A stretch of 64,000 nucleotides of DNA from an uncultured Gammaproteobacteria bacterium. Its GTDB lineage: Bacteria > Pseudomonadota > Gammaproteobacteria > SZUA-229. The translations under genes were made by a program, and so were the position numbers. Shown here one piece after another: positions 8,410-58,822 of the stretch. Each line of letters starts with the position of its first letter. Within the stretch, counting starts at the first letter, position 1. Where the stretch lies: contig CAJXZZ010000001.1 of NCBI GenBank assembly GCA_913065105.1, positions 15,117 through 79,116 of the forward strand. Reading direction: 5' to 3'. Under the pieces are notes generated by a model. It worked only from the letters and a program-made list of their open reading frames with translations, did no database searches and was not told where the DNA came from.

Positions 8410-8548
8410 GGTATTACTTAAATTTACAGATGAATTAAAAATGGTGCCCAGGGCCGGATTAAATTTGTCTGGAACAAATTTAGCATGAGTGTTTTCTACG
8501 AATGACCCGCAGGGTGAATTACAGGGATGTAATTCATAATCTAACCGG
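8410..8548 (-). repeat. Duplicated tRNA-Leu 3' end and trailer, with an ~80-bp element inserted in the T-loop
   Basis: 8410-8458 is a near-identical direct repeat of 8589-8637. CCGG...AATCTAACCGG is split by AAATTTGTCTGGAACAAATTT...GACCCGCAGGGTGAATTACAGGGATGTAATTCAT. Confidence 0.85.
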
Positions 8549-8620
8549 ATACCGGGTCGATTCTGCTCAGATATACCGTCAACTAACAGGTAATACTTAA
8601 ATTTACAGATAAATTAATAA

Positions 8621-8707
8621 TGGTGCCCAGGGCCGGAATCGAACCGGCACGCCCGTGAAGGCGAGGGATTTTAAGTCCCTTGCGTCTACCAATTTCGCCA
8701 CCTGGGC
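8621..8707 (-). tRNA. tRNA-Leu (anticodon TAA)
   Basis: GCCCAGGTGGCGAAATTGGTAGACGCAAGGGACTTAAAATCCCT...GGTTCGATTCCGGCCCTGGGCACCA; 87 nt, long variable arm, encoded CCA. Confidence 0.97.
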
Positions 8708-55851: not shown

Positions 55852-56101
55852 TTTTAGGTCTGTATTAGGATGATAATATACAAGCAATGTAAGGCTAAAA
55901 AGATGCTAAAGCCTGACAAAATTTAAAGCAGAATATTACCCTGAATCGTTCACCAAGTCGCCCTCTGCTTTGAGGATAGCGGGATTTTTTCCACGACCAG
56001 TACTTGTAATTCAGACGTTTGCACATATGTTAAGTTTACGGTGTGAAAATACCGTATAATATCGATAGAACTTGACCGTTCTATTTTAGATACACCCTTC
56101 A

Positions 56102-56463
56102 GGGGATGACATGGCTTCGACGTGGGTAATGAAACCTGAGGTGCATGCAGAGGTGTGAAATTCCTCTTAAAACCGTTCACAAAACTTATAGTTGCCAACG
56201 ACGACAACTACGCTTTAGCAGCTTAAACCCCTGCTCATAGCCCTCGGCCTAATGTGCGCTTACACGCTTAGATAACCGGGGTCGACTCATGTAAGATCGC
56301 GATGAAGCTTCTTCCTGGGTGGATTCGTTAAAACTTACAGGAATCGCTCTGTATTTTCCCTGTTCGTCGGGTAATACAAAGTTAAACTAATAGACGGAAT
56401 AAGCATGTAGAGCCGATGGCGGAGTGCTTGCGGACGTGGGTTCGATTCCCACCATCTCCACCA
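56102..56463 (+). ncRNA. ssrA: tmRNA (one-piece), tag peptide ANDDNYALAA
   Basis: 5' GGGGATG pairs with 3' CATCTCC-ACCA and has the G3:U pair; T-arm GTGGGTTCGATTCCCAC; tag frame GCCAACGACGACAACTACGCTTTAGCAGCTTAA at 56194-56226. Confidence 0.97.
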
Positions 56464-56468
56464 ATAAC

Positions 56469-56500
56469 AAAGGTCAGCCGTTTTTCGGTTGACCTTTTTT
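56469..56500 (+). terminator. ssrA intrinsic terminator
   Basis: AAAGGTCAGCCG-TTTTT-CGGTTGACCTTTTTT; the stem can extend to pair TATTGGTGG with the tmRNA 3' end. Confidence 0.8.
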
Positions 56501-56533
56501 ATTGGTGGATCTGGTATTGAATTTAAGACGCTA

Positions 56534-56730
56534 CGGGTTCAAAAAATTGTCTGGAACAATTTTTAACGTGTGCTTTTTACACGGCCCCGAAGGCACCTAC
56601 ATGGATATAGGATGGTAGAGCAACGCATATGTACAGGAAGTACGGTATTAGGGTAACGCAGGACGCAGTTACCGAGGAGAAATTGCCGAGGTGAGTCTCA
56701 TGGATGAGGCGAATACTTCCCGCCATCTCC
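56534..56730 (+). repeat. Duplicated tmRNA 3' end with a three-level nested insertion in its T-loop
   Basis: CGGGTTC (56534-40) and TTCCCGCCATCTCC (56717-30) mimic GTGGGTTCGATTCCCACCATCTCC. Between them lies the same AAATTGTCTGGAACAATTT element as at 8461, itself interrupted by two further modules. Confidence 0.85.
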
Positions 56731-58185
56731 TCATTTAACGCCGTCAAATTTTTCCTTGCCAAAGTGTTCAAGTAATAAACCATCATAATTCCTTATTCGT
56801 GTCACATAGCGTACCGGCTCATTTCCGCGCGCATAACCATAACGTAGGTCTTTATAATATTTTTTCTGACTTAACAATGGCAATATCTCTTTCATTTCTG
56901 CCCAATGGTCAGGGTTTTTATTCATCTTTCTAGCCAAAGATTGCGCGTCACGGAAATGGCCGCGGCCAACATTGTATGCCGCCAAAGCAAGCCAGCTACG
57001 ATCTGGTTCGCTTACCTCTGCCACCATTTTTTTCATCTTTGCCTGAAATTTTGCACCCGCATAAATATTTTGTTTAGCATCCAGTCGATTAGTCACGCCC
57101 AGTGATTTCGCTACCGGTTGTGTCAGCATCATAATGCCGCGCACTCCTGTCGGGCTTTTTGCTTTAGTGTTCCAATGTGATTCCTGATAACTTTGAGCAG
57201 CAAGTAAAGAAGGTTCAATGCTATTTTTATTTGCAGCATCAATAAAAAAATCTTTATATTTAGGTAAGCGCGTTGTTACTCTTGATAAGAATTTGTGTGT
57301 ATCCACATAATCAAAAACCTCGACGTAACCATAATATTTTTCTAACATACGTGCTAGACCATAATCTTCTTCATAGTGATCAAACCAGTCATTAATGGCC
57401 TGTTTCAGCTTGCCATTTTGCTTATTTATCATCCATGCCAGTTCAGTGTCTTCAGCAAAAACGTATTTATTTTGTATCTCGGTATGGTATCGGCGCTCTA
57501 TCGCGTACAAAGTAGAATCGCTAATAGTGCATTCAATTTTTTTATCCGCGACCTGCTCCAACAGATCTGAAGTGCTACTATTGTTATCTTCTGTCCACGA
57601 TACACCCGCGTAGGATTTTATTGACTGGATATAACTGCTATCGGCAGTAACTATAATCTCGAGAGTTTTTAATTCTTCTTTAGTTTTTACGCTTTTTTTA
57701 CTTCGGTGGCAGACCAGATACTCATTCGTGGTTTGGTAGACCGGCCCAAAATCGAATTCTTTTTTTCGATTATCATTAACAGTTAGACTTGCTGCAGCGA
57801 TATCGCCTTCATTATTACGTAACGCTTCTATTAGTGCTTTAGTTGAATCATAAACTTTATATTCAACATCAACCTGTAGCCTTTTTGCAAATGATTGCAT
57901 CATATCGTACTCAGGTCCGGTTATTTCATTATCACGATTGTAATAATAAGTAGTCGGTGAATTTGTGGTTAAAACGATCAACTTACCACGCTGCACAATT
58001 TTTTCTAAGAGCGCAGATGCTAGTAAATTATCACGGCTTTCCTGAATACCAGAATTAGGCAGGATGGTTGAAATGACTGATTTCTCATCGACTTGATCGC
58101 ACGCATTTATCAATAGCGTCATCACAAACAATAATATTATTTGTCTGCTTTTGCTACAGAATACTTTATGAGTAATAGAAACCAA
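56731..58185 (-). CDS. mltF: Membrane-bound lytic murein transglycosylase F
   Basis: SBP-like N-domain (RG.L.V.T.NSPTTYY, G.EYD); SLT domain LAA.SYQESHW, SPTGVRG.MMLT, ALAAYNVG.GH, YGYARG.EPV.YV. Confidence 0.93.
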   Translation of the reverse strand: MVSITHKVFCSKSRQIILLFVMTLLINACDQVDEKSVISTILPNSGIQESRDNLLASALLEKIVQRGKLIVLTTNSPTTYYYNRDNEITGPEYDMMQSFAKRLQVDVEYKVYDSTKALIEALRNNEGDIAAASLTVNDNRKKEFDFGPVYQTTNEYLVCHRSKKSVKTKEELKTLEIIVTADSSYIQSIKSYAGVSWTEDNNSSTSDLLEQVADKKIECTISDSTLYAIERRYHTEIQNKYVFAEDTELAWMINKQNGKLKQAINDWFDHYEEDYGLARMLEKYYGYVEVFDYVDTHKFLSRVTTRLPKYKDFFIDAANKNSIEPSLLAAQSYQESHWNTKAKSPTGVRGIMMLTQPVAKSLGVTNRLDAKQNIYAGAKFQAKMKKMVAEVSEPDRSWLALAAYNVGRGHFRDAQSLARKMNKNPDHWAEMKEILPLLSQKKYYKDLRYGYARGNEPVRYVTRIRNYDGLLLEHFGKEKFDGVK

Positions 58186-58352: not shown

Positions 58353-58712
58353 ATGAATAACATAGAAAAAATACTACAGCAGGTCAAAAACAACCCTGAG
58401 ACAGTTGAATTTAAAGACGTTATCAATGCTATTGATGAAAGTTATGATTACGAACCCACTCGTTTTACCAATGGCTCGCAAAATGAAAAAGTAATCAATC
58501 ATGCTGGAGAAAATGAGGGTTCATGCAAAATATTTTCATTTGCAAAACTAAATAACCTCAACGTCGAACAGACACTGAACTGTTTTGGACACTATTATCG
58601 TGATGAAGTATTAAACCATCCTGAACGTTCAGACCATCAAAACATAAGAGCATTTATCAAATACGGTTGGGAACAGTTAGAGTTTGAGGGGTCCGCACTT
58701 AAAGAAAAATAA
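58353..58712 (+). CDS. HopJ-family protein (conserved small protein; effector role not implied)
   Basis: F.D....ID..Y...PT.F.NG, N.AGENEGSCKIF.FA, FG.YYR.EVL..P...DHQNIR.F...GW. Confidence 0.85.
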   Translation: MNNIEKILQQVKNNPETVEFKDVINAIDESYDYEPTRFTNGSQNEKVINHAGENEGSCKIFSFAKLNNLNVEQTLNCFGHYYRDEVLNHPERSDHQNIRAFIKYGWEQLEFEGSALKEK

Positions 58713-58744
58713 GAGCATTAGCGTCACCTTGTGGTTGCTTGTGA

Positions 58745-58822
58745 CATATCGTACATCCAAGCTATATACGCCGCACCGCCATCCCTGGCTCCTTGCGGCA
58801 TACCGTACATCCTGTACATAAA
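58745..58822 (-). repeat. Further copy of the CA(N)GGANG-hairpin repeat family
   Basis: Minus strand TATGTACAGGATGTACGGTAT matches 56628-56648 at 20/21 nt; followed by a GCCAGGGATGGC hairpin and a degenerate GGATGTACGATATG repeat. Confidence 0.75.

Follow-up and report, generated by a model that had tools for sequence, protein, structure and literature searches.

An RtT-like repeat unit behind the tmRNA gene of an uncultured gammaproteobacterium carries nested, probably mobile 48-nt repeats

The locus described here lies directly behind ssrA, the gene for transfer-messenger RNA (tmRNA), in an uncultured gammaproteobacterium, where a unit resembling the RtT repeats (RF00391) holds two 48-nt modules, one nested within the other. 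It was analyzed in a window of 64,000 nt, which corresponds to C1:15117-79116 of the genome G000 (3.06 Mb in 147 contigs); positions below are those of the window unless a contig is named. For comparison, 34 genomes of the genus and 97 genomes from 19 genera of its uncultured gammaproteobacterial family were sampled. Related genomes carry G-numbers and extracted loci carry L-numbers, with the ssrA loci of the relatives within L002-L019. The tRNA and tmRNA genes were located with ARAGORN, the modules with nhmmer and the cores with iterated nhmmer, and RtT was searched with Rfam at permissive thresholds.

The ssrA gene was found at 56102-56463 on the forward strand, on which all parts of the unit are described here, and encodes the tag ANDDNYALAA (ARAGORN; Rfam RF00023, 225 bits). 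It is flanked by purL-like and mltF-like genes. Its terminator, a hairpin and a T run at 56469-56500, is also the center of a longer decayed palindrome mirroring the ssrA 3' end, and the same arrangement was observed in relatives. The unit itself (56503-56730) begins with a decayed inverted pseudo-copy of the ssrA 3' end (56503-56533), which forms its left arm, is well kept in relatives such as L008, and is the counterpart of the GAUGAGAA block in the RtT model alignment. The 5' half of a pseudo T-arm, CGGGTTC (56534-56540), comes next; it precedes every core in the relatives as CGGGTTCGA and pairs with the CCCG of the pseudo 3' end at the far side of the unit. The core is split into two parts. 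Its first part (56541-56593; nhmmer E 2.4e-11, and covariation over 38 copies) consists of two hairpins followed by CCCCGAAGG, i.e., hairpin 1 with the loop CTGGA, hairpin 2, and the 5' side of hairpin 3 with two Gs. Its second part (56690-56716) starts with GGTGAG, which includes the last two Gs of hairpin 3, continues with hairpin 4 (loop CATGGATG) and GAATAC, and is contiguous with position 56593 in relatives. The unit closes with a direct pseudo-copy of the ssrA 3' end, TTCCCGCCATCTCC (56717-56730), comprising the 3' T-stem half and the acceptor 3' strand. The stop codon of the MltF-like gene (56731-58185, reverse strand), which lies outside the element and was recognized by its SBP_bac_3 and SLT domain matches, abuts this pseudo 3' end.

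An earlier note, made from the letters of this DNA alone, had delimited the two modules and described a second tmRNA-like 3' end after the terminator. When the sequence was read again, all its coordinates were correct, and the second 3' end is present as 56534-56540 plus 56717-56730. The closing copy TTCCCGCCATCTCC matches the ssrA 3' end of G000 itself at 13 of 14 positions, and it is identical to the ssrA 3' end in 13 of 13 relatives, whose gene reads CCCGCC. The T-stem of the G000 gene (56440-56460) is GTGGG/CCCAC, compared with GCGGG/CCCGC in all 13 relatives. Since the G000 gene has made this compensatory change, the pseudo-copy preserves the older, ancestral CCCGCC state. The RNA fold of 56505-56735 as a whole was not more stable than that of shuffled sequences (z-score -1.08), and Rfam at permissive E-values over 56000-57000 gave no credible match on the two modules.

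Both modules lie within hairpin 3 of the core. Module A (48 nt) occupies 56594-56627 and 56676-56689, and module B (48 nt) occupies 56628-56675, so that the two together span 56594-56689 (96 nt). The 5' part of A contains hairpin I (loop CATGGAT), GGTAGAG and the 5' side of hairpin II up to GCA, and aligned with positions 1-30 of the nhmmer module model; its 3' part, GGAG...GCCGA, continues A as in uninterrupted modules of two relatives, L006 and L009. Module B, a member of a TATG-type subfamily (nhmmer E 6e-9), sits in the hairpin II loop of A, immediately 5' of GGAG. Removal of A together with B restores hairpin 3 as CCCC-GAA-GGGG. In the relatives, hairpin 3 (CCCCGAAGGGG) was read as intact and free of any module in 19 of the 21 ssrA-linked units from 12 relatives. 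At the same GG|GG point, unit 1 of L006 and unit 2 of L009 carry an uninterrupted 48-nt A-type module without B, and module A of G000 equals this type of module split after GCAACGCA by the 48 nt of B. G004 and G006 matched the query over 48-594 and then directly over 691-731, that is, without 56594-56689. At the empty sites the sequence is GAAGGGGTGAG, compared with GAAGG[insert]GGTGAG where the site is filled, and no target duplication was found at the empty and filled pairs compared. Judged by these alignments, modules A and B are discrete insertions which are absent from the equivalent sites in relatives.

Much of this had been anticipated in the earlier note, which took A and B as separate 48-nt units, held that taking out A with B inside restores a clean hairpin, saw no target duplication, and suggested a comparison of empty with filled sites and a search for further copies. 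The units proved to be members of one family by nhmmer, with B within A and A within the outer element; the restored state and the A-only state both exist in the ssrA-linked units of relatives, and further copies are dispersed in G000 and its relatives. The module at the Phe-linked core of G000 is at the equivalent place, and L006, L009 and L010 have other modules, of 42-47 nt, which lie within the loop of core hairpin 1 or next to it. Away from the cores, the orthologous intergenic spacers lack the module in 5 of 5 relatives for a locus on C3 and in 2 of 2 alignable relatives for a locus on C11, with flanking genes at 75-83% identity.

The module family was represented by 42 nhmmer matches in 35 clusters in G000. 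Each module is built of 2-5 variable nucleotides, hairpin I with a variable but compensated stem and the loop CA-N-GGA-TG, GGTAGTAGAG, hairpin II with the loop GCAGGAGCA, and CGA. The 3' end was reached by 34 of the 42 matches; the next base is A in 33 of these, and A followed by GG in 25, against a GG background of 4.5% of genome positions. The CCGA|GG junction to which the earlier note had drawn attention is therefore recurrent. The left flank is often GCA but also AGG or CCC, and the 3' end is fixed as YCGA. Of the ten TATG-type copies in G000, eight are located between the GCA and the GGA in the hairpin II loops of different outer modules, and nesting was three deep on contig C129. When a 17-mer of the module was counted with at most one mismatch, it occurred in 31 of the 34 genomes sampled from the genus and, across the family, in 56 of the 97 genomes and 16 of the 19 genera, with 0-95 copies per genome compared with 0-1 for the reversed pattern used as control. 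Among the complete genomes, G023, G062 and G095-G097 are examples that have no module. The modules lie mostly downstream of genes, 10 being between convergent and 1 between divergent genes. Another nested cluster, with several modules nested or abutting, is on the reverse strand of the window at approximately 250-400 (nhmmer match C1:15469-15500, i.e., 353-384 of the window).

These copies bear on the question of whether A and B are merely products of local hairpin duplication or slippage, or whether the locus is misassembled. The modules are short and alike, tandem stretches of GGAGCAGTT-CCGA do occur, and the assembly is one of 147 contigs from an uncultured organism. However, inner modules of the TATG type are at least 90% alike within different outer modules on 9 contigs, the module 17-mers are dispersed in 56 genomes, and the order of ssrA, terminator, core and pseudo 3' end is repeated in 12 independently assembled relatives, which makes this explanation highly improbable. 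A search of sequencing runs returned no record spanning the locus, the best runs sharing about one quarter of the sampled words; what matched were relatives' contigs, which covered chiefly ssrA and, in the case of DNA runs, the module, itself a repeat, and these runs carry no weight on misassembly, expression or habitat.

Some related sequences were also observed. An array of single-hairpin units of about 20-25 nt, each with a CA-N-GGA-TG loop and then GGTATG, is on the reverse strand at 58740-58820, after an open reading frame of the HopJ family (58353-58712). Similar single-hairpin arrays are at C3:35587-35834 and, after a terminator, at C5:41022. In IMG/VR, 4 of about 2.9 million contigs (L116-L119) carry a 20-nt module pattern, and six nhmmer matches, three of them on L116, show that the modules are true ones. 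These contigs probably represent prophages or the host DNA of bacteria related to this one, and since four viral contigs are too few, a phage vector is not suggested. A classical miniature inverted-repeat transposable element was rejected as the class of the modules, as there are no terminal inverted repeats and no target duplication at the empty and filled pairs.

The outer layer was found at other genes as well. When the last 14 nt before CCA were searched for 120-260 nt downstream of each gene with at most two mismatches, 8 of the 45 tRNA and tmRNA genes in G000 showed a downstream copy of their own 3' end: Leu, tmRNA, Asp (two copies), Ser, Pro, Val, Gln and Phe. Since only about 0.2 such copies are expected in the genome by chance (an estimate), these duplicates are beyond chance. 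The order within the units was constant across the eight genes: a terminator or spacer sequence, the 3' end in diverged and inverted form (GTGAGAAC or GATGAGAAC), a short loop, the 5' half of the T-stem with GGTTCGA, a core with four hairpins, about 85 nt long and ending in GAATA, and ATCC with the rest of the tRNA 3' end. The ssrA genes of relatives are followed by one to four such units in tandem, each consisting of a 3' end, a terminator, an inverted partner and a core. The duplication extends into the 3' flank at Leu (C1) and at Phe, where about 95 nt are identical. The Leu unit is the second RtT-like unit of the window, located by the 3'-end copy search and nhmmer at 8421-8620 on the reverse strand, downstream of tRNA-Leu (8621-8707, reverse strand). 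Its 39-nt direct repeat, 8421-8459 versus 8600-8638, covers 22 nt of flank in addition to the 3' end of the tRNA, and its core, at 8460-8537, runs against the direction of the tRNA. The nhmmer match at 8460-8530 (E 1.3e-9) identifies the copy at 8461-8537, with which the earlier note had aligned the outer element, as a true member of the family.

In total, 18 copies of the core were found in G000 and 23 in the ssrA loci of relatives. Their hairpins covary: in 38 copies, 89.1% of the stem positions formed standard pairs, compared with 70.9% (maximum 73.7%) in 300 column shuffles and 32-46% when the partner strand was slid, and double changes were seen in 20 of the 24 stem pairs. Eleven cores are in pseudo T-loops, eight in the sense of the tRNA and three inverted (Leu twice, Phe). 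Two tRNA-Ser genes are preceded by pseudo 5' ends that hold a core in the D-loop. Further cores are away from tRNA genes, in unrelated hairpins and within another repeat, and in L003 and L004 a core lies inverted within hairpin 1 of another core. The occurrence in both orientations, in D-loops, in unrelated hairpins, in another repeat and within itself indicates that the core behaves as a discrete unit. The whole RtT family may have begun as a mobile four-hairpin core, entering T-loops between positions 58 and 59.

Several observations concern the placement of these cores. In L012 (G021) at 1950-2140, one ssrA-linked unit has two cores, the first of which is in the GATGA|GAAC loop of the inverted partner, a third type of loop. 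Near-identical cores at C7:32496, C23:37044 and C98:7613 of G000 are embedded in another repeat as GAGTCACTCTTTTGCTACAGCCCAAAAGAGTAACCAGA, core, CATGCCGCC, which makes a composite repeat. After both of the cores upstream of tRNA-Ser genes (C37 and C79) there is a shared TGGCACATAG-RAAT stretch, which by its letters resembles a putative sigma-54 -24/-12 element. The C37 locus (C37:17821-18675, L061) contains, in order, csrA, the core in the D-loop of a pseudo tRNA-Ser 5' end, tRNA-Ser, an RtT-like unit and tRNA-Arg, an order which we take to be that of csrA-serV-argV in E. coli.

A second 3' end behind ssrA could also be read as an attL/attR scar of a lost island, or of tandem islands, at ssrA. 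An integrase gene does follow ssrA directly in L011 and L013, 5-23 kb separate ssrA from the mltF-like gene in relatives, and tandem islands that left direct repeats at ssrA are described for Dehalococcoides (PMC3146451). Nevertheless, seven different tRNA genes also carry the unit, each with its own 3' end, and cores are found upstream of two tRNA-Ser genes, in both orientations in the T-loops and away from tRNA genes; the units match the RtT model. An integrase att-site scar was rejected on account of the gene-less units of about 175 nt at eight different genes, and the reading is very unlikely. The integrase genes of L011 (G023) and L013 (G013) look P4-type and stand in place of RtT-like units, and together with the gaps of 5-23 kb they indicate that ssrA is also an island integration site in the genus.

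The outer layer was placed by means of the RtT model. In G000, full-length alignments (model positions 1-130) were obtained for the Val-linked unit on C79 (42.2 bits, E 9e-7 for the genome), the Ser-linked unit (27.3 bits) and the Asp-linked unit (19.8 bits), and the ssrA-linked units of relatives in L003 and L009 scored 23-27.3 bits. The same L003 and L009 units reached 33 bits against AaHKsRNA22 (RF02902), which is under its gathering score; this family is probably of the same kind as RtT. As a positive control, the RtT model gave 16 matches in several tRNA operons of E. coli K-12, 13 of them over the cut-off. Two weak ones below the gathering score are at 2817924-2818449, which is presumably the serV-argV operon beside csrA. 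The blocks common to the alignment are, in order, GAUGAGAAC, GGUUCGA, an AACG-hairpin-CGG, CCCGAAGGG, a hairpin, and GAGUAAUCC with the tRNA 3' end. The core blocks and the order of hairpins were recovered by cmscan over the full model and agree with the covariation of the four hairpins, and the direct copy of the 3' end from the T-loop on, placed after the 5' T-half and the inverted partner, was found both in this genus and in E. coli at tyrV and proK. The tyrV-rttR repeats and the proK-linked unit of E. coli K-12 have the same build, including the split pseudo T-arm, and the terminator is duplicated at proK.

The likeness to the E. coli RtT or 178-bp tyrT repeats thus includes the position beside tRNA genes, the direct copy of the neighbor's 3' end from the T-loop on, the inverted partner with GAUGAGAA, GGTTCGA, the four hairpins including CCCGAAGGG, and GAGTA; E. 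coli units can also be in tandem and contain a terminator. The units described here differ in their scores below the gathering threshold, in their attachment to ssrA and in the GGA in the loops of hairpins 1 and 4, which the E. coli units lack. In addition, the core here is also found by itself, within another core, and in the D-loop of pseudo 5' ends. Since the model matches, the blocks are in the same order and E. coli has the same build, we read the outer layer, by sequence and model alignment, as a unit of the RtT type, a distant relative attached to ssrA. The suggestion in the earlier note that this architecture had no known description does not hold for the outer element, the build of which is standard for RtT and tyrT repeats.

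The locus as a whole is consistent with two layers, an RtT-type unit at ssrA and nested 48-nt micro-repeats that would be mobile in trans, and we give this combined interpretation a probability of roughly 70%. According to it, A entered between the Gs of hairpin 3 of the RtT-like core, and B entered the hairpin II loop of A. The modules would be non-autonomous mobile DNA moved by an enzyme which recognizes a folded hairpin with a GGA loop, single-stranded DNA being the simplest substrate for it. The insertions lie 5' of GG(A/T)G, mostly in hairpin loops, with YCGA as the end of the module and no duplication of the target. Since each module adds two GGA loops, every insertion would make new targets, which would explain the nesting. 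The fixed 3' end, the loop target, the absence of duplication and the preference for positions downstream of genes argue for a hairpin-specific strand-transfer enzyme acting in trans. For its class, Y1/HUH is a possible but tentative candidate, another site-specific strand transferase (e.g., DEDD/IS110-like) is doubtful, and more than half of the weight is assigned to no class.

The earlier note had favored HUH/Y1 enzymes (IS200/IS605 TnpA or RAYT) and had proposed looking for copies clustered beside their genes. In this form, the modules would be REP-like repeats mobilized by a RAYT or an IS200/IS605-type Y1 HUH transposase. The defined insertion point, the lack of target duplication and the hairpin-dependent ends fit such a mechanism, as does a GTAG one base before hairpin II in the module consensus, GTAG 5' of a palindrome being a feature of REPs. 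The location mostly downstream of genes is also in agreement, and the genomes richest in modules, G005 and G012, have many Y1 matches as well (10 and 8). Y1 matches were found in 30 of 34 genomes of the genus; however, the only Y1_Tnp match in G000 is interrupted by a TAG. Stretches reaching about 1.5 kb from 30 Y1 loci, 85,111 nt in all, contained no modules or cores, and the 81,380 nt around all 18 Y1 matches of G005 and G012 contained 2 full module matches, about the 2 expected by density. G042, which is 97% complete and has 15 module 17-mers, showed no Y1 match, and G014 and G023 have Y1 matches without modules. Over 34 genomes, the numbers of Y1 matches and modules were not correlated (Spearman rho 0.07, p 0.69). 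Only 1 of 35 clusters was of mixed orientation, so that there are no REPIN-like inverted doublets. The single adjacent case is a module inside an insertion with terminal inverted repeats, which apparently interrupts a Y1 gene flanked by a different REP. Mobilization by these enzymes is therefore unsupported, no clustering beyond the density expectation was found around the 30 Y1 loci of the genus or the 18 Y1 matches of G005 and G012, and we consider this reading unlikely.

The adjacent case is located at 1990-2836 of L081 (G012:C40), where a RAYT-like Y1_Tnp gene is apparently interrupted by an insertion of about 170 nt with 21-nt terminal inverted repeats and a 48-nt module within it. On its flanks this gene has classical REPs (GTAGGAGCGG...), and such REPs are rare in G000 (3 copies).

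With REP, BIME and REPIN sequences the modules share the character of short extragenic hairpin repeats that are mosaic, clustered and downstream of genes, the GTAG-type motif and the absence of target duplication; they differ from them in that neither flanking by RAYT genes, nor correlation with these, nor inverted doublets were found in the genomes studied here. We know of no REPs that insert into each other's loops. The PATEs of IS200/IS605 elements are alike in their hairpin ends and in their insertion beside a short target without duplication. In contrast to them, the modules have no conserved 5' target tetranucleotide and a variable 5' end, and no linkage to TnpA was found. The cyanobacterial SDRs, which Elhai et al. 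reportedly described in 2008, are said to be mobile, hairpin-forming repeats far below the size of miniature inverted-repeat transposable elements, nested in each other and in other repeats and not known to be moved by any particular enzyme, and the modules resemble them in these respects. SDRs are set apart by their phylum, their unrelated sequence and their reported length of 21-27 nt, compared with 48 nt, two hairpins and a YCGA|GG junction here. The GC clusters or double-hairpin elements of fungal mitochondria are mobile elements of 30-80 nt which insert into structured regions and into each other; they are organellar and unrelated in sequence, and some have short target duplications.

The GGA loops allow for a different function. 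In the core, hairpins 1 and 4 have CA-N-GGA or C-N-GGA loops, as do hairpins I and II of the module, and these hairpins might be kept as RNA sites for CsrA/RsmA, the core and modules being GGA units that spread into transcripts or decoy RNAs. The SELEX consensus of CsrA is RUACARGGAUGU with the GGA in a hairpin loop (PMC7652899), and the loops in core and module match its central part. The stems covary and the loops are conserved, and G000 has two csrA genes. In addition, RtT RNAs are described as released from tRNA operon transcripts, in E. coli for example (PMC4986893; bioRxiv 10.1101/2024.07.17.603846), and Northern blots have shown them in A. pleuropneumoniae (PMC4986893). On the other hand, between genes of the same direction 15 modules are antisense and 6 sense (nested matches not being independent), the loops of E. 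coli RtT have no GGA, and a strong terminator separates ssrA from the unit. A separate candidate for a Csr/Rsm decoy RNA is also present, and selection as CsrA sites is an improbable explanation of the repeats.

This candidate decoy small RNA (C5:41022-41274, reverse strand; L120) has 10 [AC]A-N-GGA motifs in 250 nt, a rho-independent terminator, a TGTAGG-N6-CCTACA palindrome about 60 nt upstream, and a weak match to RsmY (18.6 bits, E 0.063). The modules resemble the decoys CsrB, RsmY and RsmZ in having many short hairpins with CA-N-GGA loops, and differ from them in that there is no promoter or terminator for each module, both orientations occur, and the candidate decoy has a gene of its own. 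A combination of mobility with CsrA binding, in which the 48-nt modules and the single-hairpin units would be self-propagating sites of the CsrA/RsmA type, inserted into GGA loops by an activity that recognizes GGA loops, is given an equally small chance. If true, RNAs with multiple GGA would lengthen by one module at a time, RtT-type RNAs released from the transcripts of tRNA and tmRNA genes among them, and sites of post-transcriptional regulation would themselves be mobile.

Returning to the two-layer interpretation, several observations weigh against it. For the outer layer, all RtT scores are under the Rfam gathering score of 45, the best being 42.2, and the ssrA-linked unit of G000 itself was not matched by the RtT model at permissive E-values over 56000-57000. 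For the modules, no mobilizing gene was found and the Y1/HUH tests were negative, IS110, IS91, TnpB and reverse transcriptases not having been searched for. Copies in G000 are 1-5 substitutions apart and show compensatory changes in hairpin II, which suggests old copies under structural selection or many masters and no recent burst. The 5' end is variable (TATG, CACC, CTTC, CGCC, TAACA and others), which is a poor fit with sequence-specific cleavage at that end. No replication-strand bias was detected by GC skew (17 versus 11 clusters, a split of little information), and transposons using single-stranded DNA are often biased. Base-precise empty sites were obtained only within repeat units, the unique intergenic spacers being too diverged, and the module at the junction of hairpins 3 and 4 in G000, G010 and G024 could be inherited and not the result of three events.

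Taken together, the outer layer is of a known kind, and the nested 48-nt modules represent a new form of very small repeats which are probably mobile. To our knowledge, mobile DNA of less than 50 nt has rarely been documented, and we are aware of no established mode by which it moves. With its YCGA end, its GG target in loops, the absence of duplication, its nesting in itself and copy numbers from 0 to 95, the module family provides unusually clean material for studying how micro-repeats move. The results also carry a warning for annotation, in that a second 3' end downstream of a tRNA or tmRNA gene is not necessarily the att site of an island. The core that occurs alone, within itself and in D-loops bears on how RtT units arise, and the tyrT/rtT repeats of E. 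coli, which are old and unexplained, are tied to a wider family that reaches an uncultured lineage of marine sediments and the tmRNA gene.

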